From Escherichia phage PC3: a DNA stretch of 64,000 bases. Positions within the stretch are counted from its first letter, which is position 1, and each line of letters starts with the position of its first letter. A program made the position numbers and the translations under genes. Under the pieces are notes generated by a model. The model was given only the letters and a program-made list of their open reading frames with translations, was not told the origin of the DNA and did no database searches. Positions 26,841-58,599 of this stretch are shown in pieces. The stretch lies in the sequence record ON184125. The stretch is one strand, 5' to 3'.

Positions 26841-28739
26841 TTATTCATCCTCAGTTTCAAATAGGCAAACATCGCTAAACCAGGTTTTGCGGTAATCGGC
26901 GGCCTCGTCACCGAAGCCATTCTTCAGTGACTGTTGATAGCCATCGTCCAGCGTGACCGTCGTAGTATACGCATCCAGGTTGTTTAGAATACGTTTGAAG
27001 TCTTCAGTGCTGTTACCACCCAGACCTTTCAGATATTTCTTCTTCGTGATCTTCTTGGCATCAGGCGTCTTCAGGAACTCCTCATACTCTGCGTTGTTCA
27101 TGAACTCATGCATCACCTTGCCACACCACACACGCATGTAAGGGGTGCGCAGGAGCTTCAGCCTGCCCTGACGGACGTACTCCGGCCAGTAGGTGCAATA
27201 CAGGGTGATCAACAACCCACGGATGTGAATGCCGTCATCGTCCGCATCGGTAGCCACAACAGTCTGTGGGTAACGGGTGATGTCAAGGGGCTGGCCTGGT
27301 ACTGCACCGCCGTGGATCGTACACAGGTTCTTGAACTCTTCATTGTTCATCACCTTTGAGCGCGGGGCGTTCAGGCAGTTGATGAACTTACCACGAAGCG
27401 GGAACAACCCGATCTTCTTGGTGTCGCGGGCGTTCAGGATAGGATTGGAGGCACTATCACCCTCTGTCAGCAACAGGGAGCATCCGCTGCGGTCACCACG
27501 GGCGGTCGCCGGGTAATACTTCTCAATCTCACGATAATCCCGCTTGCTGATGTCCTTCTTGGCCTTTTCAAACTCAGCATCATCCTGCTCATTGCGCAGG
27601 GAAGCCAGTTCTTTGCTCAGACCAGCCGTAACGAACTCAAGCGCCTTGCGGATCAGTTTATCGCTGGGCTTGTACGACGTACCGAACTGGCTTACAGGAG
27701 TGGTCATGCGCTCCTTGGTCTGGCTGTCAAAGCGCGGGTTGTTGATGTCGGCGGCGATGAACAAGGACATGTGGTTCTTGATCATTGCTGGCTTCAGTTC
27801 GGTCTTGAACTTCTTCACCAGCTGGGGACGAATCGCTGCCACGATCTGGTCAGCAACATAATCAACGTGAGGACCACCGATGTGGGTGGCAATAGAGTTC
27901 ACGTATGATGCGTGCATGAACGTACCGGATGAAGGGGCTACAGCAACAGACCAATCCCCGGTTTCGTCAACAGCCGAACCAGCATGGAAGTAATCAACGA
28001 AGTGGCCAAAGCGGTCAATCCGGATTTGCTTCCCATTGAGAACAATCTTCAGGCGCGGGTTACACGCAGCCACTTCAAACGCGCGGCGATAGATCATCAG
28101 CAGGTTGTTCTGGTCAAGTCCTTTGACGCCCAGACGAGCATAGTCAGGGATCCAGGCGATGGATGTGCCGGGACTGTTCACGTTGCTGATGACTGGGTTA
28201 GATTTCTTGCTCATGTTGTCTTCAAACGTCTGAGTATAAGACTTCTTGCCGTCATTAGTCGTGACGCGGAACCATTTGGAGAACACGTTGACGAGGGACG
28301 CCCCTTCGCCATTCTGACCACCGGACTTCTGGTTGTTGTACTCTTCGTCTTCGTCGTTGAAGTTCGATCCTGCAAACAATTCTGAAAATAACATTTCTGG
28401 CAACCACATACCAGATTCATGCTTGACCACAGGGATACCCCCGTTGTCAGCAACGATGATTTGACCGTTCATCGGGGAAACTGTGACGGTGATTTCCGTC
28501 AGGGATTTACCCTCAGGGGTCTTGCTGTGGTCAACACAGTTGGTGATGATTTCATCAAACTGTTTGATAAGAGCGGGGTTATATTCAAAATTGTCTTTAA
28601 ACACAACTTTGTCTTTGCTGAGATCATATACCCAAGCCATCCCGACAGAAGAACGGATACTCCCTAGATGGCGCTCTGGGCGAAGGAGTATATGCTCGAT
28701 GTGTGAGAGCTTTTTGTATTTTCTGTTTACATCAACCAT
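26841..28739 (-). CDS. DNA topoisomerase II large subunit (gp39/gp60-type, GyrB-like ATPase plus Toprim)
   Basis: GHKL ATPase N-terminus and Toprim LLLTEGDSA motif; uninterrupted 632 aa. Confidence 0.9.
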   Translation of the reverse strand: MVDVNRKYKKLSHIEHILLRPERHLGSIRSSVGMAWVYDLSKDKVVFKDNFEYNPALIKQFDEIITNCVDHSKTPEGKSLTEITVTVSPMNGQIIVADNGGIPVVKHESGMWLPEMLFSELFAGSNFNDEDEEYNNQKSGGQNGEGASLVNVFSKWFRVTTNDGKKSYTQTFEDNMSKKSNPVISNVNSPGTSIAWIPDYARLGVKGLDQNNLLMIYRRAFEVAACNPRLKIVLNGKQIRIDRFGHFVDYFHAGSAVDETGDWSVAVAPSSGTFMHASYVNSIATHIGGPHVDYVADQIVAAIRPQLVKKFKTELKPAMIKNHMSLFIAADINNPRFDSQTKERMTTPVSQFGTSYKPSDKLIRKALEFVTAGLSKELASLRNEQDDAEFEKAKKDISKRDYREIEKYYPATARGDRSGCSLLLTEGDSASNPILNARDTKKIGLFPLRGKFINCLNAPRSKVMNNEEFKNLCTIHGGAVPGQPLDITRYPQTVVATDADDDGIHIRGLLITLYCTYWPEYVRQGRLKLLRTPYMRVWCGKVMHEFMNNAEYEEFLKTPDAKKITKKKYLKGLGGNSTEDFKRILNNLDAYTTTVTLDDGYQQSLKNGFGDEAADYRKTWFSDVCLFETEDE

Positions 28740-29562
28740 TATTATCTCCGTAAAATTTCAACCAGGCGGGATCTTCTTTTGGTATCCAACCTTTCTGAAA
28801 TTTAGATATACAAGTTTGAGCTGTGGCCTTAGAACAAACAGAGCTTAACCCGGTTTCTTTCAACATTAAACAATAACGGTTCTTCACTTTGTCTTCACCG
28901 TTACTATACCACCATTCAAAGAATTCACCAGCCAAGAGCCATTGTCGGGATTTACCCGTCTTTACGACAGTCGGGTGTTCCCAAGGTTGTATGTTATTCA
29001 TGGGATTGTTCTGGCGCCACATAGCAGAATACCTCTCCCTTTCTTCTGGTCGCCTCATCCGTTCGGTGACTGATTTGGTAAGATTGGCTTTGTGTGCTTC
29101 GGAGTGTGGTATCCCTTTCCTGGATTTTGACAACCTGCGCCTTGATTCGTCATTCCAAGTGTAACCTCTCAAACTATCCGCACGTTTCTTCTGTACTTCT
29201 GGGTTCAATGAGTTTTTCTTGGATTGCTTACGACAACGTTCCTTTTGTTCATCAGATGACATCACTTCTTTCATTCTGGTGGAATTATTTCTCCTCAATT
29301 CCCCAAACTCTTTGTTGTTCCTAGACATGTTGTTCATCCCAGTCCATGCCTTCCTGATACCGGGGTTGAGTGGTTTTGTTCTCCAAAGTAAGTGATGTAC
29401 GACATAATGTTCTTCTGGTGTCAACCATACAAGATTAGAGAAGTGGTTAGTGCCACCCAAGCACACAGGGATTATATGGTGGCGTTCTTGATAAACGCCA
29501 TCCATTTTACCTCTCTGTATTGCTCTCTGTATGAGAGCGTCTAAGATGATTTCGTATTTCAT
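28732..29562 (-). CDS. HNH homing endonuclease
   Basis: HHIIPVCLGGTNHFSNLVWLTPEEHYVVHH motif; C-terminal FQKGWIPKED module. Confidence 0.8.
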   Translation of the reverse strand: MKYEIILDALIQRAIQRGKMDGVYQERHHIIPVCLGGTNHFSNLVWLTPEEHYVVHHLLWRTKPLNPGIRKAWTGMNNMSRNNKEFGELRRNNSTRMKEVMSSDEQKERCRKQSKKNSLNPEVQKKRADSLRGYTWNDESRRRLSKSRKGIPHSEAHKANLTKSVTERMRRPEERERYSAMWRQNNPMNNIQPWEHPTVVKTGKSRQWLLAGEFFEWWYSNGEDKVKNRYCLMLKETGLSSVCSKATAQTCISKFQKGWIPKEDPAWLKFYGDNNG

Positions 29563-43945: not shown

Positions 43946-44145
43946 TTTGGTTCCTTGAATATTTTGTAACCAGCAGCGCCGATAGACATCACCGCGCCAA
44001 TACAGTACATCACAGTCACGTTCAACTTCTCTGAGGTTGTTAAGTCCAGAGGGGTGAAATGATAGGCTAGGGCAGTACACATTGAAACGGCTGCCATAAC
44101 CAGACCAATGAACAACAGATAATTAGACAACCGTTTCATGATCAC
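43942..44145 (-). CDS. small membrane protein
   Basis: 67-aa ORF, two hydrophobic helices. Confidence 0.35.
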   Translation of the reverse strand: MIMKRLSNYLLFIGLVMAAVSMCTALAYHFTPLDLTTSEKLNVTVMYCIGAVMSIGAAGYKIFKEPK

Positions 44146-45740
44146 CCCTTCTTCATCAGGTCAAGGAGAGAGCGCGACGCTGCCTTCGTTGCTTCTGGCT
44201 GGGCGCTCGCCTTGGTTTTAGTTTTGGATGCCTTCTGCGGCTTCTCAGGCACTCTGTGCGCCAAAGGGTTGCTACCCTTAATCTTGCGCAACATTGGTGT
44301 GGTGTCGCAATATTTTTGAAACTCTTCTTTGGACAACCCTCTCAATCCAACAAAATCTATAATAAAACTACCAATAAAGTGGAGAGGGGCATCGAAGAAT
44401 TTCAGTATATTCCAACCAACTGCCTTTACACCATTTTCATTCGCTGCCTTTGCAATGAACAACTCATTCTGAGAGTCTGGTTCAAGTTCGTATCCGATGG
44501 CAGCGTACTCACTCATGATCTTGACGTGATCCTTGGTGTATTGTTCATTTCTTCCCCAGCCAGTGTCCTTCGCCGCCTTACCAGAACGACCGATGATACG
44601 TTTGTCGTAATCTTCCCGCGCTTGGTAAATAAAGGAGATGAATGCCATGTTGTTGAACCCCAAGTCCTGGTGTACGAACTCGGGACGCCATCGATGGCTC
44701 TGCATCATAGGTTCCCCCTCCAAGATGATAGTTGCATCTTTGAACTTTATTTTGAGATACTTCAACAACGAATTGGCCATCTCAGAAGACTTGAGAGTGG
44801 AGTGTATGAAATCCATAGAAGTCCATGATGCTAGACCTGATTTGTTGGACACTGTATACTTGCCGATGAACACCAGATTGATTTCCTTGAACCAAAACCC
44901 AACCTGGATCATCTTCTTGTCGAATTCGTATTCTATGAGTTCTGGCTCATATTTGGTTCTCAACCACTCAAGGAATTGAACGACACGAGTCCCCTTTCCC
45001 GTTCCACTTGTCCCGCGAATAACGACAATACCCGGCGTCACGCTAGAATTTATCATAGTCATAAAACGTTTGTCCTCTTTGGGAATCCAACCATCTTTAA
45101 ACATGGCGATCATATTACGAAAGACGCTCTCATCGCCCTTTAGATTACGATACTCTGTGTCCAGTAGTTTAGAATACCACAATCCGATAGATTTGTAACC
45201 ACATCCTCGTTTTGGTATACAGGTAGGATTCACAGTACCACCGTTATTCACCCATCTATCATAGATCCTACGGGCGTCCTTCCAAACCCACCAATAACCA
45301 TTTGAAACCATGAATGGGTAGGGAGAATTACCCCTGTTCTCCTTTATTGATTTTATTACACGCTCCCGGTATTCTGGATCATCCCAAGGATTTATACCAG
45401 ATTTGTATTTCTTGCCAGTCCTGGCCAACGCCGCCTTAAATTGGTTTGGTATGATAGAATTGTCTCCTCCCAATTTCAGGTTCAGACATAATGGGTCCAA
45501 CAGTAACTCTTCCGTAACAATAATAGACTCCAGGTCGGATGCCTCCAACCTGGTTTCAAACTTTTCTATTATCGTCTTTAAGAATTCAGAAGCGGGGTGA
45601 GATTCCAACAACCTTTTGATGATAACACCAGAACCCATATAGGGGTCTTGTTCGGGGGCGCATGAACAAGACCGAATCCCGACGTAGAATCTCCCAGTTG
45701 GGACATGGGTTATCCTATATGTGTAATGGTAGCGAGCCAT
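44142..45740 (-). CDS. GIY-YIG homing-endonuclease domain fused in frame to a P-loop kinase domain
   Basis: N-terminus YTYRITHVPTGRFYVGIRS...YMGSGVII (GIY-YIG); FKDGWIPKEDKRF module at about aa 215; C-terminal half has Walker A GTSGTGKGT, IGKYTVSNKSG and ILEG, paralogous to the 1228-1887 kinase. Confidence 0.7.
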   Translation of the reverse strand: MARYHYTYRITHVPTGRFYVGIRSCSCAPEQDPYMGSGVIIKRLLESHPASEFLKTIIEKFETRLEASDLESIIVTEELLLDPLCLNLKLGGDNSIIPNQFKAALARTGKKYKSGINPWDDPEYRERVIKSIKENRGNSPYPFMVSNGYWWVWKDARRIYDRWVNNGGTVNPTCIPKRGCGYKSIGLWYSKLLDTEYRNLKGDESVFRNMIAMFKDGWIPKEDKRFMTMINSSVTPGIVVIRGTSGTGKGTRVVQFLEWLRTKYEPELIEYEFDKKMIQVGFWFKEINLVFIGKYTVSNKSGLASWTSMDFIHSTLKSSEMANSLLKYLKIKFKDATIILEGEPMMQSHRWRPEFVHQDLGFNNMAFISFIYQAREDYDKRIIGRSGKAAKDTGWGRNEQYTKDHVKIMSEYAAIGYELEPDSQNELFIAKAANENGVKAVGWNILKFFDAPLHFIGSFIIDFVGLRGLSKEEFQKYCDTTPMLRKIKGSNPLAHRVPEKPQKASKTKTKASAQPEATKAASRSLLDLMKKG

Positions 45741-47234: not shown

Positions 47235-48816
47235 TCAACCTTTCTTCTTTTGCATCATGGCAAGAAGGTTCACACGGCGCTTGTGTGACCAGCCGACCAC
47301 GTCGAGGATAGACTGAATCGGATCAATGAAGGACTTCTCAAAGGCCGCCTGATAATCCACCCATTTGCCCAGACCAAGCTCCTCGGGGAAGAACTCAGGA
47401 TATGCAAAGTAGTTCTGCCCAAACGGGTTGCCCGGCTTCAATAACACCATCTGTACCTTATCACCCGACTCGATCATCGGTAGACCCAGATCTTCGTTCT
47501 TCTCAACCAGACGGTTGTAGCCCACACACGCCTTGGCAGCAAAATGAGCACCAGATATAAACGAGCCGTCAGCAGCCACACACTTCTCTATGTCGGACAC
47601 GCCTGACGCCTTGGCGATATCGTCTACAGAGAGTTTCATGTACTCCTCTTTGTACTGGGAGATGAGCGTCTGTACTTCCTCTTCGGTGCCGAGTAGGATC
47701 TTCTCATAACACTTGACAAGACGCTCACGACACCATTCCGGCGTGGTGGACTTGCGGGCTTCCAGACCTTTGAACTTGATCTTCGGCTTCTCATACTTGA
47801 TACCCTCACTGTCGTACACGGCCATGGCATACATCTTCTTGGCTCGCCAGACAGCGGCTGACGCAATGACCTCACGCTCCCATACCATACGCTGTTCAAA
47901 TCCGTTCATGGTGTTACACAGAAGCTGTGCCCACTCATTGGTCTTCGGCTGGTAGTTGTCTTTGATCCATTGGTCGATATTATCAACCATAGCATGATGG
48001 TCAGTAACATCAGGCCACAACTGCTTGACAAGACGCTCAATGCAGATGTAGTTGGAGTCGGTATCACCTGCGATGACGAAGTCCTGGCCTGTTGTACCAC
48101 ACAGCTTGTTCAGATAGTCATCAGTGTAACGCTTGTTCCACTTGTTGATCAGCTGACCGGATGTGGTGATGGCTTCGGCAATGTTGAGGTTGAAGTACTC
48201 TTTGAACCAGACGTTCGAGATCGCGCCATAACCTGCGTTCATCAAGATCTTCAGACCTTGCTGTAGGGTATCTTGAGCGACGCCCAGGTCTTCCCACTTC
48301 TTCATCACTTCGGTCAGGGCATCAAGATCAATGTTCTTGTGCTCTTCATACCACTCTGGGTCATAGTAGCGAGACTTCATGGCAGACTCAAGATGGAAGT
48401 CGCCCTTCGACATCTCTTTACACCAGCCAGCCCACTGCTCATACTTCAGACCCTTGGCCTTCTCTACTTTACGGTCGCTGTAGATACCACGCATGATTTC
48501 AGACAGGAACGACATCTTCTCGTTGCTGAAGAATTGAACGTTCGGTGTGAACGACACGTTGTAGCGGCGCAGGGTTTCAAAGTGGAACTCACCCAGGGCA
48601 ACCAACTCATCAACAACCTGCAGGCGTTCGTCAACCGCACGCAACAGCTTGTCGTGAAGGGCTTTCATCAACCGACGTTTGTGCATCGGCGTTGCCATGT
48701 TATTCATCTGAGCAGCCAGCTCTTCACACATAGCCTCAATAATCTCGCGGCGCTGGTGTTTGTCGCCAACGATAGTCTCAGGACCGAGGTTGTACTGCTG
48801 AATGATGTGTGGATAT
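47235..48816 (-). CDS. DNA polymerase (family B) exon 2: second half of motif A through C-terminus
   Basis: Starts with YPHIIQQYNLGPETI matching T4 gp43 YPSIIRQVNISPETI; contains motif C VIAGDTDSNYICIE; both exons together are 3000 nt in frame. Confidence 0.85.
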
Positions 48817-49281
48817 CGCTTGTGTTCAGGGATGCTCGCTATTTCATCCCCCGTGTTCGTCATTCAGTTTACCGAACACTGCTGTATGTCACCATACAGG
48901 CCAGACTATATCACAATCTCCAGAACTGTCTAGAGATTCTCTCCATTTCGAGGCGCTTGCCCCTACTCTACTCGCTTCAGATCAGACGCTTAGTCGTCGG
49001 TCTTGCTTTCGATAGTCGTTGAACCTTGTCGCCCACTACTTCAAGGAAATCATCTGGGTTTAACCCAGCGTAACCAAAGAGTCGTTTGAAGTTTCTTGCC
49101 AACTTGCCCCACTCATTCTGGCAAACATTTCCTTCATGACCTTACTCCTTCACCGAGGTTACAGAGTATTTAGATCTTCGTGGCCGACCTTGGCTGCTGA
49201 TTATCTCTAAAGAGACTTCCCAGCAATTAAGAGAGTTATTCGATGGTTGTCGCCAACCAAAGCCCCTATGCTGCTAACTTA
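48817..49281 (-). mobile_element. group I self-splicing intron, ORF-less (~465 nt), inside the DNA polymerase gene
   Basis: Interrupts motif A between DLNSL and YPHII; 5' exon ends in U that can pair (U-G) with intronic GGGG guide; intron ends in G; GGGTTAAACCCAGATGA, ACGACTAAGCG and GATATAGTCTGGCC resemble T4 td intron P3 and P7 elements from memory. Confidence 0.7.
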
Positions 49282-50699
49282 AGGGAGTTCAAATCTTCCG
49301 AGAAGACCCAGAAGTAGATTCCTGGTGTCACATCCATGACGTATGCACCCTCAAAGTCGGTCGGACCATCGTATACACGCTGGATCTTAGGCACTATCCC
49401 CTTCTCGTACAGGCGATAGTAGCACATGGCCAGCCACGGAGCCACAGTGCCCAGACCGTCTTCATAGTTGGACTTGGTGCGGTAGGCCAGGACGAACATC
49501 AGTTGGAGCAGGCGCAGCTTCTGTTCAAGTCGCCATACCAGCTTAACGTCTTTGATACCATATCGGGTGTGTTTGCAGTAGTCGTTGAAGTACAGATCAA
49601 AGAGCGACTTGCTCTCACTGTAGTCCATCTTCTTCTCACCCAGCTCACAATACGCAATCCAGTCAAGAGAGTAGCGTTCACGGGTGGTGTACGTGTGTTT
49701 CTTGTAGATCTGCATATAATCGAGCATAGGGCAACCCACGAACTGATACGTCGTGATATCGCCCTTCTTATCGCGAATGATACGCTTCTTAATGATACCC
49801 CAAGGACTGAGGCGCGACGTTTCAGCCTCACCCAGAACCTGATTCATGCGCTCAACAAGATAAGGGCTATCAAACGTCTCAATGTTCCAGCCTGTCCAGC
49901 CGTCGAACTGACGCTGTGACCAGAAGTCAAGGAAAGATCGCAGCAGATCCTGCTCGGTGACAAACTCCTTGTACTCCACCTCAAGTCCACCGATCTCCGC
50001 GTCTTCTGGATCGTATCTGAACTTCGCACGATCCTTCGCGCACGGCATACCCCACACCATGAACTTATTGGTCGCCATGTCCTGAAGCTGGATCAGGGTA
50101 ATGGGGAACGCCGCATTCATGTCTTGGGTGATCTTACCGTTGCTGTCAATGATAGGGAACTGATCAGTGACGTTGTTGCTGATAAAGGAACTGGGAAAGT
50201 GCTCACGGATGAAGTCATGGTTGGCCAGTACCTGCTGATGGAAGCGGCGAATGCGCGCCTCATTCCCTTTGAACGTCTGCTGCTCAATGGTTGGGTGAGG
50301 GAATGGACCTTTGGTCATCTTTCCATCTTTCCACCCGGCGGAGAACACTTCGATATCGAGGTTAGCAATATGGATGTTGGAGTAATCCGGCTCAATCTTT
50401 CCAGGAAAGCTATGGGCGATGAACTGGTATGCATAATCGGTCTGCCCGTAAATGGCTGCACCCTGGACTTCCTTGTACTCTTCAAGGTAGTTGTCAGCAG
50501 TGCGCATGTCAGGGAACTTCTTGGAGACCAGGGGTTCGTTGAGCAGGCCGACCTTTTCAACATTTGAATAATCAGCCGTGGGTAAATAGAGAGTGGGTTC
50601 GAATTTCTTTTTCAACAGACGGCGATTACCCATGTCATCTGCAATTCGAATCAACAGGTCATTGCCCCTGCGGGCAACGTTCGTATAGAAAACGGTCAT
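49282..50699 (-). CDS. DNA polymerase (family B) exon 1: N-terminal and 3'-5' exonuclease domains through first half of motif A
   Basis: N-terminus resembles T4 gp43; Exo I HIANLDIEV; ends ...GAYVMDVTPGIYFWVFSEDLNSL then stop in the unspliced frame. Confidence 0.85.
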
Positions 50700-55584: not shown

Positions 55585-55606
55585 TAGTGTATCCTCAAAT
55601 CTATGA

Positions 55607-55636
55607 TAGGGGGTTAACGGTTAAATTTTAAACCCC
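55607..55636 (-). terminator. hairpin GGGGGTT...AACCCCC with AT-rich loop
   Basis: 7-bp G/C stem followed by TTTG on the plus strand; lies between the tRNA region and the 55584 gene start. Confidence 0.4.
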
Positions 55637-55954
55637 CTTTGTATCATTGAACAAACTATGATAAAGGAGGACATGCTTGGGCCGATAAGAAGATAATAAG
55701 ACAGGGATAAAAAGAAAGCCGGATAGGATATCCGGCTATACCACATCGATGGGATGGGTTGAAAGACTACACGCTTGCACTGGTACTACCCTATGGGAGA
55801 GCGCGTCAGGAGTCGAACCTGAAGTCGTCGACGTAGAGAAAGCTATTTGCATTTCACTATCCTCGCCTCGATTTTCTTAACTTCCTAAACACCCCGATTA
55901 CGAGAGAGTCGACATGCACATCTTCTAACTCTTCAGGAAGTCACGCCCGTAATT

Positions 55955-56043
55955 TGGCGGAAGGTGAAGGATTCGAACCTTCGGGGGCTAAAAGCCCCAC
56001 TCGATTAGCAGTCGAGTCCCTTAAACCTCTCGGGCAACCTTCC
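55955..56043 (-). tRNA. tRNA-Ser (anticodon GCU), type II with long variable arm, CCA encoded
   Basis: Manually folded cloverleaf: acceptor GGAAGGT/ACCTTCC, anticodon stem CTCGA/TCGAG with loop CTGCTAA, variable-arm stem GGGC/GCCC, T-arm GAAGG-TTCGAAT-CCTTC. Confidence 0.8.
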
Positions 56044-56296
56044 AATTTGGACGGGCTTCACACCCGATTGAGCATTTGATCTGCCGTAGCCCAACTCCCC
56101 GCGCTTCTCAGCGCCGATTGGTTAACTGGCGACCAGTGCCTTCTGGTTCGATCTCCTGGAACTTTACAGGCTTTGCGCCCGACCATTTCTGGAAGTTGGG
56201 GCATCGTTTCCGATGCGGAGTCATCCCCATTTTATACACAGCTGGCTGCAACGCTTACTGTGTTTGTCGGAGTGTTATGTTTCACACCCCTTAACA

Positions 56297-56373
56297 TGGT
56301 GATCCTGATTGGGTTTGAACCAATGACCAATGAATTATGAGTTCACTGCTCTAACCGACTGAGCTACAGGACC
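56297..56373 (-). tRNA. tRNA with CAU anticodon (Met or lysidine-modified Ile), CCA encoded
   Basis: Acceptor GGTCCTG/CAGGATC (one G-U), D-arm GCTC-AGTCGGTTA-GAGC, anticodon loop CTCATAA, T-arm ATTGG-TTCAAAC-CCAAT. Confidence 0.75.
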
Positions 56374-58395
56374 AAATTATTGTGTACCAACCAAGGACTG
56401 TCAACCCTTTATCCCGTTTGTGTATGATCAGTTCATGCATGCCTGTTTGTGCGCCTCACGGCATGCGCTTCTGTGGGTCTTTGGCTTGCACCATAGCCTC
56501 GCCACAGGCGTTTATTTTTCCAGGGCTTTCCACTTACAAGTCTTAACCAGACCGGGATACGGGCTTGTAAGATCGGGTTGGACACAACTTTGATAGCTCT
56601 GGTACTAAAGATCCCGCGTCACCCATAGACATGGTTTATAAAATCCAGAGCCATCAAAGTTGCAACCAAATGTTACAACTCGCAGCTTCCATGTAGAAGC
56701 AACTTGTCCTCTAACGCTCGGACCAAACTAGGCTGGCTGGTTGATTCAGAGCCGCTGGTTGCTCCAGCAAGCATGGGTTGATAGCCCGGCAACATAGAAT
56801 CACCCAAAGATGAAGAACATTCATGACTCACATCACACCACGAATGGCCTGAAAGAGAATCGAACTCTTTAAATGCTCTTCATTTTGTGAACTTGAGAAT
56901 ACTACGCCTGTCTCGGGTTTCCCCTTAGTTCGGCCTCCCAGTCCTCGCCGCGCCGGGTAGCTAACCCTGATGGCTCGTCTGCTACTGAGTTCTTCTTGGT
57001 GCCCACCAGTGTCCGGAATGTGTAGGCATCGCAATCTGCAAGGCATGGTCTATTTCACCCAATGCTCTCTCAAGTTCACAAATCGAAGTGCCCTGACTCA
57101 ACAGTATGGCCCAATATGCTGTTATCGTCCACCGGATTGGCCGTCCAATTTGTAGATCAACCTTTGGGTTTAAGATAAATTGTCAAGGCACTTCGATTTG
57201 TGTGCCCTTCACCTGCCAGGGGTCAGGGCTGATGGCAAGACTTCGCTCACATCTTTCAAGATACTCGTGAGAATATCCTCAAAGATGTGGGCCGTTTTAG
57301 GGAGTCGAACCCAAATGTTCAGCCAGCGCTGACCTTACATCCCATCTGACTCAGGCAACCCGCCTCTGCTTACTCAGGAGCTTATCCCCTTTGTGCAGTC
57401 AGATGTAACGGCATTTTATTTAACAATTCATTCAACTGATAACTTCAGGGGACCACTCTCATCTCCCCACATTTCGACCGCCCGGGACGGTTTAGTGGTA
57501 CGTCACTTGGTCTGTTACATGGTAGGAGCCGATTCTCCCTCGAATTACCTCTTGTTCGTATGCCTACAAACAATTTCACAGATTGCTGACAAGTTATCAT
57601 GTGAATGAATTGTCATTGTATGCCCTGACTTATTAATCACATCTCAGGGCCGCGATGCGCCAGATTCTGTTACAGGGAACTGGAATACCCCGCTGACTTA
57701 TAGGCTATTACGCCGCCATCAGAACTTCCGAATCATTAGCATTTATTTGCTTGGTCAGTTTCTAAAAACCCGCAAAGTCACGCACAACGAAAACGAAAAC
57801 CTGTTTGAGTCCTAAACGTACCTGTCTTAGTCTCACAACGCTATGAGTGGCCAGGACTCAAACAGCTTGCCGTTCAGTGGGTTAACTATACTTTGTAACC
57901 CGTTATTGATAAACCTTTTATTTTTGTTGGTGAGGGTGTCACCATCGATTTACCGGAACTTACGCATCCGGCCTCGCCTGTTGGTGATCCTTCGAATCCG
58001 GGAAGATCAGTAGGAACTATGAATCAAGTTAATTCAACCAACAGGAACCTTGTTGCCCTTTGACGCAACATTATGAACCCTCTATGGAAGACTCATAATG
58101 TTGTGGCGTGATGGAGATTAGCGCCCCCGACCTCCCCTTATATGTTGGTGTCGACTTGCCAACGGGGTGCTCTCTATTTCTGAGCTAATCACGCTACAAC
58201 AGGGAGTTTCGTTCTCCGACGGTCAAGTGCGTCCACTGACACCATGCAAGGTGGATATTGACTTATGGAGTCGGAGTCCTCGTCCTAGGACTGTGCTCGG
58301 CCTCAACCTTTACACCGCTGGTAGCCCGACCCTTTACACCATAAAATTTACTATACTACAGCCCAGCTAATTTGAAAAGTCCTCTCCTCTTTGAG

Positions 58396-58542
58396 CTACA
58401 CTGCCCACAGCAGTGCGGACGAACCTTCACTCAAAACCGGATGCGCCGAAGTGGGCGTCTGTTTACCGGACTGATCGGGTAGACCCAGGAGAGTAAAGGT
58501 AATCCCGATCAGGAGGATGAGGAGTAACATCATGTAAAACAT
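58396..58542 (-). CDS. small hydrophobic peptide (48 aa), below the ORF-track size cut-off
   Basis: Strong SD GGAGGG 6-8 nt upstream of ATG; MFYMMLLLILLIGITFTLLGL predicted TM helix. Confidence 0.35.
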   Translation of the reverse strand: MFYMMLLLILLIGITFTLLGLPDQSGKQTPTSAHPVLSEGSSALLWAV

Positions 58543-58599
58543 AGTGTTCCCTCCCTTCCATGCAACTAACTTTACTGCAATTATTTATTGAATAAAGCG

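Follow-up and report, generated by a model that had tools for sequence, protein, structure and literature searches.

A group I intron carrying the remains of an HNH endonuclease gene in motif A of the DNA polymerase gene of Escherichia phage PH4

The window analysed here comprises the last 64 kb of the genome of Escherichia phage PH4 (Ackermannviridae, Aglimvirinae), and its minus strand, to which all coordinates below refer, carries two open reading frames that are annotated in the GenBank record as two 'DNA polymerase' CDSs. The first (49266-50699) terminates in ...FSEDLNSLKLAA followed by a stop codon and the second (47235-48863) begins with MTNTGDEIASIPEHKRYPHIIQQYNLGPETI; as the original prediction had it, one ends and the other begins inside the catalytic motif A of a family B (PolB) polymerase. 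Joining 49282 to 48816 yields a continuous frame of 3000 nt, or 999 codons and a stop, with Leu encoded by CU/A across the junction, and this is the sole junction that keeps both the frame and the conserved Leu. Exon 1 (49282..50699, 1418 nt) comprises codons 1-472 and the CU of Leu473, ending in ...FSEDLNS(L), and exon 2 (47235..48816) supplies the A of Leu473 and continues with YPHIIQQYNLGPETI... up to the stop codon. The interruption is placed between bases 2 and 3 of the motif A Leu codon (DLNSL/YPHII), and the exon 1 frame is closed by a UAG at intron positions 14-16 (49268-49266), within the guide sequence of the element described below. In the unspliced frames the ends that reach into the intron read ...DLNSLKLAA for the first and MTNTGDEIASIPEHK... 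for the second.

The polymerase gene of phage AV101 is uninterrupted at 3000 nt and lacks exactly the 465 nt present in PH4 (CCCT/GTAT versus CCCT[465 nt]ATAT), the intron-less site reading CCCTGTATCCTCAC. Exon DNA of the two phages is 97.8% identical, and the polymerases match at 996 of 1000 aligned positions when the stop is counted with the 999 residues. AV101, together with the PH4 sequence itself, confirms the junction, length and Leu codon originally proposed. The spliced 999-aa product also aligns without a break to RB69 gp43 across motif A (PH4 / RB69: sedlnslyphiiqqynlgpeti / sfdltslypsiirqvnispeti), the colinearity that had been put forward as a check. The predicted junction in the spliced mRNA is ...AACUCCCU joined directly to AUAUCCACAC..., and the predicted junction peptide is ...DLNSLYPHIIQQ..., spanning ...DLNSLYPHIIQQYNLGPETIVGDK. 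Introns are mentioned neither in reviews of the Ackermannviridae nor in the paper describing AV101.

The 465-nt insert (48817..49281) is identified as a group I intron of IA type by its match to Rfam RF00028, its absence from AV101, base-pair covariation and its folding energy. The Rfam match covers the full-length model (1-253) on minus-strand positions 49269-48882 with 58.6 bits (E = 2.7e-12) against a gathering score of 50 bits, which bears out the predicted identity. The minimum free energy of the insert has a z-score of -3.97, and unconstrained folding returns P2, P3, P4, P5, P6/P6a, P7.2, P8, P9.1 and P9.2.

All core helices from P3 to P9 could be placed, including the pseudoknot made by P3 and P7 (intron position p is 49282 minus the window coordinate). 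The internal guide sequence UAGGGG (intron 14-19, 49263..49268) forms a P1 that is invariant in nine distinct Ackermannviridae variants and in the Krischvirus JSE: exon CCCU is bound by G16-G19, with a U.G wobble at the 5' splice site between the exon-terminal U49282 and the leading G of GGGG, and intron A2 and U1 are the partners of U14 and A15. The P2 hairpin (intron 23-38, 49244..49259) with a GCGA tetraloop, the 5' strand of P3 (47-52, 49230..49235), P4-P5-P4' (57-87, 49195..49225) and the 5' strand of P6/P6a (88-102, 49180..49194) lead into a long P6 extension (49037..49179), which is closed by the P6a/P6 3' strand (246-259, 49023..49036). Beyond it lie the 5' strand of P7 (263-269, 49013..49019), P7.1 (284-297) and P7.2 (319-332) within 48945..49012, the 3' strand of P3 (338-343, 48939..48944), the P8 hairpin (344-367, 48915..48938), the 3' strand of P7 (374-379, 48903..48908), the P9 hairpin with a GUGA tetraloop (383-400, 48882..48899), P9.1 (403-429) and P9.2 (431-454) within 48828..48879, and the terminal G at the 3' splice site (48817). 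The exon U opposite GGGG, the terminal G and what had been termed P3/P7-like elements were thus all recovered. The P7 5' strand reads A-(bulged C)-GACUA; A263-U379, the bulged C264 and G265-C378 are identical in all variants and in JSE, and G265-C378 is presumed to be the guanosine-binding pair. For P10, in which the guide sequence would pair with the 3' exon, inspection turned up no convincing contiguous helix but just a weak match of 3 bp, offset by one base, between exon UAU and intron A13-A15. The 3' exon opens with A in the copies from Ackermannviridae and with G in JSE, and the G of JSE rules out the notion that an A is required there to avoid GG at the 3' splice site.

The hand-built P1-P9.2 structure contains 86 pairs, and across the nine variants 99.4% of cells are paired. 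Compensatory double changes occur at 13 pairs, a count equalled in none of 500 shuffles and compared with at most 3 in slid controls; P9.1 and P9.2 account for 7 of these (5 and 2), and compensatory pairs are also seen in P6a (2) and P8 (3). Comparison with JSE adds 14 more, including three in P2, three in P3, two in P7.2 and two in P9. P4-P5-P4', P7 and P7.1 are invariant across the sample, and covariation is uninformative for P4, P7 and P7.1. Relative to the Rfam model, 64 nt are inserted between P7 and P3', in the P7.1/P7.2 region, and extra hairpins at this place are a hallmark of subgroup IA. We regard the intron as IA-type from P7.1/P7.2, P9.1/P9.2 and a core about 80% identical to that of the T4 nrdB intron, an assignment made on extra hairpins and nrdB likeness, in which P7.1, being invariant and absent in JSE, is unproven.

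The two annotated CDSs could instead be translated separately and their products assemble in the manner of gp43A and gp43B of Aeromonas phages 44RR and 25, as the GenBank annotation would suggest. Split PolB enzymes exist among T4-related phages, and the polymerase gene of LIMEstone1 has a second insertion, distinct from this one, that resembles a true cistron split, complete with its own AGGTGA ribosome-binding site. Such a split would entail a ribosome-binding site and start codon for the second cistron and a gap free of any ribozyme, whereas in PH4 the gap is filled by a bona fide group I ribozyme and the ATG of the second CDS (48863) sits in the P9.1 loop with no Shine-Dalgarno sequence found before it. 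The polymerase start and the endonuclease stub described below each have one, and its lack at the second frame argues against two polypeptides. In addition, the KLAA C-terminus of the first frame and the 16 N-terminal residues of the second are intron-encoded and missing from the intron-less homologue, and the break would part DLNSL from YP inside one catalytic motif. We therefore consider a split enzyme highly improbable in PH4, in agreement with the original preference for splicing; the two-CDS annotation of the record is wrong, and the intron is missing from public annotation.

The P6 extension is the wreck of an HNH homing-endonuclease gene. It retains a late-promoter-like box, TAAATA (49167-49172), named after the annotation of the LIMEstone1 record, a Shine-Dalgarno sequence AAGGAG (49145-49150) sequestered in a hairpin, a frame-shifted stub ORF of 25 codons with an ATG start (49060-49137) and, where the deletions join, the microhomologies GAAGGAAAT (49127-49135) and GAGTGGGG (49107-49114). 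The last 45 endonuclease codons (49114-48980) and their stop (48977..49114 in all) are also retained, matching residues 248-292 at 100% by tblastn, and this same stretch forms P6a', P6', J6/7, the 5' strand of P7 and P7.1. Where the endonuclease codons GUG-GGC-GAC differ synonymously at their third positions, the 5' strand of P6a changes to match, which reflects this dual coding. The prediction that the insert has no ORF accordingly held for long sense ORFs but overlooked the stub and the 45 terminal codons.

The complete element is found in LIMEstone1, RPN242 and ZQ1, where the intron is 1183 nt long and encodes a 292-aa protein in P6. This ORF matches phrog_12434 'HNH endonuclease' in PHROGs (E = 1e-159), which provided the HNH typing; Pfam returned no family at E <= 0.001 for two endonucleases of the LIMEstone1 type. 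Removal of 657 nt at a 9-nt repeat and 61 nt at an 8-nt repeat converts the ZQ1 intron into that of PH4 with 2 mismatches, so that 718 of the 879 nt of the ORF are deleted. Phage A221 has the same 465-nt intron, with both deletions in common and 2 nt differences from PH4. On this alignment the ORF-less state of the PH4 intron is secondary, the intron being a deletion derivative of the endonuclease-carrying I-LimII intron, and as it lacks an intact endonuclease it is unable to move alone. Endonuclease-carrying and intron-less loci gave nothing at the Rfam gathering threshold, and at a relaxed threshold the LIMEstone1 intron appeared only in two halves, which score 29 and 21 bits and so fall short of the gathering score. 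We attribute the failure of Rfam on the endonuclease-carrying copies to the insertion penalty of the model and not to a missing fold; since the long P6 ORF hides the ribozyme from the model, a missing match there is no evidence against an intron. The HDV-like ribozyme described for Ackermannviridae in a 2026 paper is unrelated to the polymerase locus, and none reached the Rfam threshold in the 64-kb window.

The deletions might have crippled the ribozyme, in which case the gene would effectively be a pseudogene, a helper (for instance a chaperone of the host or the phage) would be needed, or another polymerase would replicate the phage. A loss of 718 nt from the P6 loop, leaving 143 nt of non-native sequence, could be read in this way, and both the occurrence and the efficiency of splicing in PH4 are matters that we infer. 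Both deletions, however, fall entirely within a peripheral loop and leave all core helices intact, including P6/P6a, and the ORF-less form outscores the endonuclease-carrying forms on the Rfam model. PH4 and A221, with their 2 nucleotide differences, are independently isolated plaque-forming phages, and the exons are undecayed when set against AV101. A dead intron is for these reasons a very improbable account. T4-type phages provide a precedent for translational bypass in gene 60, with a gap of ~50 nt. Recoding of this kind without RNA splicing, or a sequencing or assembly artefact, was considered solely for that precedent, has nothing specific in its favour and is effectively refuted by the Rfam match, the covariation and the recurrence of the insert. 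The 465-nt gap is far above that of gene 60, and an artefact is ruled out by 32 independent genome records that have the insert at this site, some with the endonuclease ORF and some lacking it.

The gp43-type polymerase of PH4 is thus very probably encoded by a single gene with a 465-nt IA-type group I intron in motif A, its endonuclease lost by deletion, and we infer that it is spliced. The pre-mRNA would fold into the P1-P9.2 ribozyme, an external guanosine held in P7 would attack after U49282 as positioned by the GGGG guide, and the freed exon 1 would then attack after G48817, joining the exons into a 3000-nt mRNA for the 999-aa polymerase. Ribosomes translating exon 1 would halt 16 nt into the intron, so that they would not run through the catalytic core. 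The ancestral intron carried the HNH homing endonuclease in its P6 loop, and two deletions between short direct repeats destroyed this gene in PH4 and A221, the last 45 codons being spared because the same bases serve as P6a', P6' and P7-P7.1. The resulting intron would be splicing-competent but self-immobile, at a late stage of the homing cycle, and the 143-nt remnant that stays in its P6 loop might conceivably delay folding. Phage A221, with the same intron, has been propagated and used in piglet phage-therapy trials, which indicates that its polymerase gene works.

The distribution of the intron is patchy, with copies at the same site in 32 genome records versus 268 with polB matches. Copies in ZQ1 and RPN242 are 99% identical to the PH4 intron and retain the endonuclease ORF. 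In the Kuttervirus LPST94 the intron is likewise 99% identical to that of PH4 and the exons are only 80-89% identical, with the first 100 nt of exon 2 at 99% identity resembling a co-conversion tract. These identities show that the intron lineage, in its endonuclease-carrying form, has been transferred laterally between phages of the Agtrevirus type and Kuttervirus. The PH4 intron might further act as a cheap resistance allele: with the motif A site occupied, the phage would be immune to I-LimII-type endonucleases without the cost of a nuclease, the intron could be spread in trans by endonucleases of relatives or by free-standing ones of its own, and motif A would be a battleground of unrelated phages. 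We offer this as a speculative reading that is rather unlikely to hold. ZQ1 and RPN242 are the co-infecting relatives envisaged, T4 mobE acting with the nrdB intron and its defective I-TevIII is the model for spread in trans, and IA-type introns are present at the identical PolB codon in two families (Ackermannviridae and the T4-related JSE).

These results correct the public record, in which PH4, A221 and ~30 other Ackermannviridae list the essential DNA polymerase as two or three proteins and also carry a spurious antisense 'hypothetical protein', where there is in fact a single gene, by our reading spliced. Such misannotation distorts pangenomes, phylogenies and the safety annotation of therapeutic phages. 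Three stages of the homing cycle are present at one site within one genus of Agtrevirus-like E. coli phages, namely an unoccupied site in AV101, an endonuclease-bearing intron in ZQ1 and RPN242, and an intron with a wrecked endonuclease in PH4 and A221, with flanking exons 97-99% identical among these phages. Homing, trans-homing and competition between phages by way of introns could conveniently be studied in this natural system, and the endonuclease codons that double as ribozyme helices are a clear, small example of dual coding.

The homologous insert of LIMEstone1 was named a 'putative intron' in 2012, inferred solely from an endonuclease ORF splitting the gene, with no fold or splicing shown (PMC3296691). 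The LIMEstone1 I-LimII intron and its copies in RPN242, ZQ1 and the Kuttervirus phages LPST94, maane, KE30 and SeF6a occupy the same site (CCCT/ATATCC), are 1183 nt long with the intact 292-aa HNH ORF in P6, and are 92-99% identical to PH4 in the ribozyme parts outside the endonuclease; PH4 and A221 have the same element minus 718 nt. I-LimII is listed as GIY-YIG in Table 1 of that paper (PMC3296691), whereas the protein matches an HNH family here. An IMG/VR scan with the 19-mer core GTTCAACGACTATCGAAAG gave at least 130 matches and, among the matches listed, the one upstream of a PolB motif-A exon is LIMEstone1 itself; the 19-mer is characteristic of a generic and very large family of phage introns and is not specific to the PolB motif-A site.

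In JSE, gene 43 has been noted to contain a putative group I intron whose endonuclease gene is truncated (PMC2993671). Its insertion position is identical to that of PH4 (DLTSL/YPSII; CCCT/GTATCC), its length is 464 nt versus 465 nt, its endonuclease gene is likewise truncated, and it shares the same set of helices, with 44 identical and 14 compensatory of 61 pairs. It differs in belonging to another phage family, in having no P7.1, a shorter P8 and P9.1 and a different endonuclease wreck, and it scores 42.9 bits on Rfam, under the gathering score. A specially close lineage of the two is unproven, the PH4 intron being about equally similar to the T4 nrdB intron; the specific link appears to be the shared insertion site only, and the two introns may owe it to common descent or to independent invasions.

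The T4 nrdB intron, of subgroup IA, still splices although its I-TevIII is defective by internal deletion, the endonuclease being intact in RB3 (PMC2988022). Its core is ~80% identical to that of PH4 over P3'-P8-P7' and 83% over P3-P6, and in both introns the P6 loop houses a gene of the HNH endonuclease family, whose 3' end extends into P6'/P7, as well as a late-promoter-like box and a hairpin that hides the endonuclease Shine-Dalgarno sequence. They differ in host gene (nrdB versus polB), and no protein similarity was detectable between the I-LimII-type endonuclease and the T4 I-TevIII remnant. The 25.g43B intron of Aeromonas phage 25 (Petrov, Ratnayaka & Karam 2010, as summarised in PMC2993671) is a PolB group I intron that encodes no endonuclease, is reported to self-splice and is believed to depend on a free-standing endonuclease for its mobility; unlike that of PH4, it interrupts cistron 43B of a polymerase gene that is itself already split. 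Phage PolB introns with an absent or truncated endonuclease were already known from phage 25 and JSE, and the intron of PH4, which does not overturn current understanding, is a real yet ordinary member of a familiar class of phage elements.

The window matches the final 64 kb of record ON184126.1 without a difference (window coordinate = record coordinate - 91895). The record is of Escherichia phage PH4 (Ackermannviridae, Aglimvirinae) and annotates the polymerase region as two unrelated coding sequences, 'DNA polymerase' and 'DNA-directed DNA polymerase'; it lists no intron feature. The first ORF (50699-49266, minus strand) ends in ...FSEDLNSLKLAA* and the second (48863-47235, minus strand) begins with MTNTGDEIASIPEHKRYPHIIQQYNLGPETI. 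As originally predicted, the two meet at motif A and join in frame, since fusion of 49282 to 48816 yields exactly 3000 nt, or 999 codons and a stop, with a CU|A leucine codon at the junction. The spliced protein matches the Pfam PolB exonuclease and polymerase domains and aligns with RB69 gp43 continuously over the junction (E = 5e-108; 'fsedlnslyphiiqqynlgpetivgd' in PH4 vs 'msfdltslypsiirqvnispetiagt' in RB69). The related phage AV101 has an uninterrupted 3000-nt polymerase gene that lacks exactly 465 nt (AACTCCCT|GTATCC vs AACTCCCT[465 nt]ATATCC in PH4); its exons are 97.8% identical to those of PH4, and the products agree at 996 of 1000 aligned positions (999 residues plus stop). Only the predicted junction combines a U at position -1, a G at the intron end, an open frame and the conserved leucine, and these boundaries are borne out.

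A covariance-model search of the window matched the insert (49281-48817, minus strand) to the Rfam group I intron family RF00028 over the full model at 49269-48882 (minus strand) with 58.6 bits (E = 2.7e-12) against a gathering score of 50, and this was the sole non-tRNA Rfam family above threshold within the window. The 465-nt insert is a group I intron by Rfam's own curated standard. Helices were placed by hand (intron position = 49282 - window coordinate). P1 pairs exon CCCU and the intron bases U1 and A2 with 14-19, P2 pairs 23-28 with 33-38 (GCGA loop), P3 47-52 with 338-343, P4 57-62 with 82-87, P5 66-70 with 75-79, P6 88-90 with 257-259 and P6a 94-102 with 246-254. P7 joins 263 and 265-269 to 374-379 with C264 bulged, followed by P7.1 (284-287 with 294-297), P7.2 (319-323 with 328-332), P8 (344-353 with 358-367), P9 (383-389 with 394-400, GUGA loop), P9.1 (403-409 with 423-429), P9.2 (431-437 with 448-454) and the terminal G at 465. 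P9.1, P9.2 and the additional hairpins that separate P7 from P3' give a subgroup IA layout, and an unconstrained minimum free energy fold independently recovered most of the hand-placed helices (z-score -3.97 vs shuffles).

Covariation was assessed across nine distinct Ackermannviridae variants of the intron, aligned outside the endonuclease portion. Standard pairs occupied 99.4% of 774 pair cells, and 13 pairs, located in P2, P6a, P8, P9.1 and P9.2, had changed on both sides. None of 500 column shuffles reached the observed pairing and covariation, and pairing fell to ~40%, with at most 3 double changes, when the 3' partners were shifted by 1-3 columns. P3, P4, P7, P7.1, P7.2 and P9 were invariant among the nine variants; comparison with the gene 43 intron of the T4-related phage JSE added 14 compensatory pairs, including three in P3, two in P7.2 and two in P9, with 2 of 61 pairs broken. 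For P4, P7 and P7.1 the evidence is confined to the Rfam model or folding. The Rfam match, hand-built fold, covariation, exact boundaries and colinear product uphold the predicted group I intron and support its assignment as a phage IA-kind splicing-type element that has lost its homing endonuclease gene to deletion; we infer with high confidence that it self-splices. It is very improbable that the two annotated coding sequences are made as separate polypeptides assembling into an active enzyme, as the second ATG (48863) lies in the P9.1 loop behind GGTAAACTGA, which is not a Shine-Dalgarno sequence, unlike the GGAG at the polymerase start or the AAGGAG at the endonuclease stub. The exon-1 frame stops at a UAG at intron positions 14-16, so that ribosomes would halt ahead of the catalytic core. 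A 68-codon ORF (48809-49015, plus strand) antisense to the 3' half of the intron over P7.2-P9.2, entered in the annotations of A221, RPN242 and ZQ1 as a 201-nt 'hypothetical protein', is very likely a spurious gene call.

Of the 32 phage records with this insert at the site, 30 carry a ~1180-nt form that includes an ORF of 879 nt; the 465-nt form is confined to PH4 and A221. Two deletions and two mismatches separate the PH4 intron from that of ZQ1: 657 nt are missing at the 9-nt repeat GAAGGAAAT and 61 nt at the 8-nt repeat GAGTGGGG, each repeat flanking its deletion. The A221 intron has the two deletions as well and departs from that of PH4 at two bases. The lost ORF encodes a 292-aa HNH endonuclease (phrog_12434, E = 1e-159). 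The description of the intron as ORF-less holds in that a long sense ORF is lacking, but the insert keeps remnants of the deleted gene: a TAAATA box (a putative late promoter in the LIMEstone1 annotation), an AAGGAG Shine-Dalgarno sequence sequestered by a hairpin, a frame-shifted stub of 25 codons, and the last 45 endonuclease codons, unchanged. These 45 codons overlap P6a', P6', J6/7, P7 and P7.1, and in LIMEstone1-type copies a synonymous change from GUG-GGC-GAC to GUA-GGU-GAC is matched by G97A and C100U on the opposite P6a strand. The deletions presumably stopped before these codons because they double as ribozyme helices. RF00028 exceeded threshold on the endonuclease-deleted form only; two endonuclease-carrying copies (L002 and LIMEstone1) gave 0 matches at gathering, or two partial matches of 29 and 21 bits. 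Automated Rfam scans will thus systematically overlook mobile introns still bearing their ORF. I-LimII, the LIMEstone1 endonuclease of the homologous intron, is classed as GIY-YIG in Table 1 of PMC3296691; the I-LimII-type protein (L002 2063-2941) has an HH...N...H motif, matches the PHROGs 'HNH endonuclease' family (E = 1e-159) and is also HNH in RefSeq.

Kuttervirus LPST94 (subfamily Cvivirinae) carries an intron 99% identical to that of PH4 between exons of 89% (exon 1) and 80% (exon 2) identity, and identity rises to 99% over the initial 100 nt of exon 2, which fits the co-conversion expected during homing. Over exon 1 (window 49282-50699), LPST94 and PH4 match as a mosaic, with identities of ~80% in the 200 nt adjoining the 5' splice site, 96-100% at 200-900 nt upstream and 73-85% beyond; this pattern suggests an additional recombination tract, off-centre from the intron. 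Intron presence is patchy (32 carriers vs 268 records matching the polymerase gene). Lacking an endonuclease, the PH4 copy cannot home on its own, and such copies may persist as immunity alleles or be spread in trans. The window also holds an F-LimXI-like free-standing homing-endonuclease ORF (44142-45638, minus strand) 1.6 kb downstream of the polymerase gene, and a free-standing HNH ORF (28732-29562, minus strand) adjoining a topoisomerase/gyrase-B-like gene and weakly resembling, at a tblastn E of 0.002, the endonuclease lost from the intron. The ~3 kb at 55585-58599 (record 147480-150494) is without annotation in the PH4 record; Rfam and ARAGORN place tRNA-Ser(GCU) at 55955-56043 and tRNA-Met(CAU) at 56297-56373 (both minus strand), missing from the GenBank annotation.

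The 2012 LIMEstone1 paper (PMC3296691) reported 'three putative introns', two of which fall in the polymerase gene, deduced from the presence of gene-interrupting endonuclease ORFs, with no ribozyme fold or splicing shown there. Later Dickeya phage papers mention introns in general terms only, and they are absent from a 2024 Ackermannviridae review and from the AV101 comparative paper. The second LIMEstone1 polymerase insert (I-LimIII, HE600015 3521-4410) is absent from PH4, where exon 2 is continuous (48816-47235). Its 860 nt are nearly all occupied by an antisense endonuclease ORF, an Rfam search of it returned nothing even at E <= 1, the flanking polymerase sequence is diverged from PH4, and the downstream piece starts at an ATG (MSPEEYKNW...) behind an AGGTGA ribosome-binding site of its own. 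The insert is unlikely to be an intron; it resembles a free-standing endonuclease by which PolB is divided, in the fingers region, into two polypeptides, comparable to the split in Aeromonas phages 44RR and 25. In that case, a single polymerase gene of LIMEstone-type phages would combine an intron with a true gene split.

Gene 43 of JSE (Straboviridae, Krischvirus) is also annotated as two coding sequences, around a 464-nt insert located after ...ACTTCCCT and before GTATCCATC, the same position as in PH4 (DLTSL|YPSII). Its removal leaves an open frame of 892 codons; the insert scores 42.9 bits against RF00028 (E = 1.9e-9), under the gathering score, and shares the helix set of PH4 with a different truncated endonuclease. 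A 2010 review (PMC2993671) lists this 'putative group I intron' and notes the truncation of its endonuclease gene; it also lists a gene 43 intron without an endonuclease in Aeromonas phage 25. The PH4 intron is no more similar to that of JSE than to that of T4 nrdB, so the shared site is the sole specific link between PH4 and JSE and is compatible alike with common descent and with independent invasion. PH4 and JSE share the 19-nt core GTTCAACGACTATCGAAAG (J6/7-P7) exactly, and IMG/VR contains at least 130 occurrences of it, spread over at least 120 stretches of viral contigs; several large phage contigs have 4-7 copies (seven in IMGVR_UViG_3300031555_003522), and among the matches listed only one, LIMEstone1 itself, lies upstream of a PolB motif-A exon. 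A very large and closely related phage intron family occupies many other genes.

The T4 nrdB intron has a core ~80% identical to that of PH4, and its HNH endonuclease I-TevIII is inactivated by deletion but intact in RB3, the intron being mobilised in trans by mobE (PMC2988022). With its defective I-TevIII it is the textbook parallel to the PH4 intron, which adds a new, so far unannotated example to a known kind of element and is not a new kind of system.
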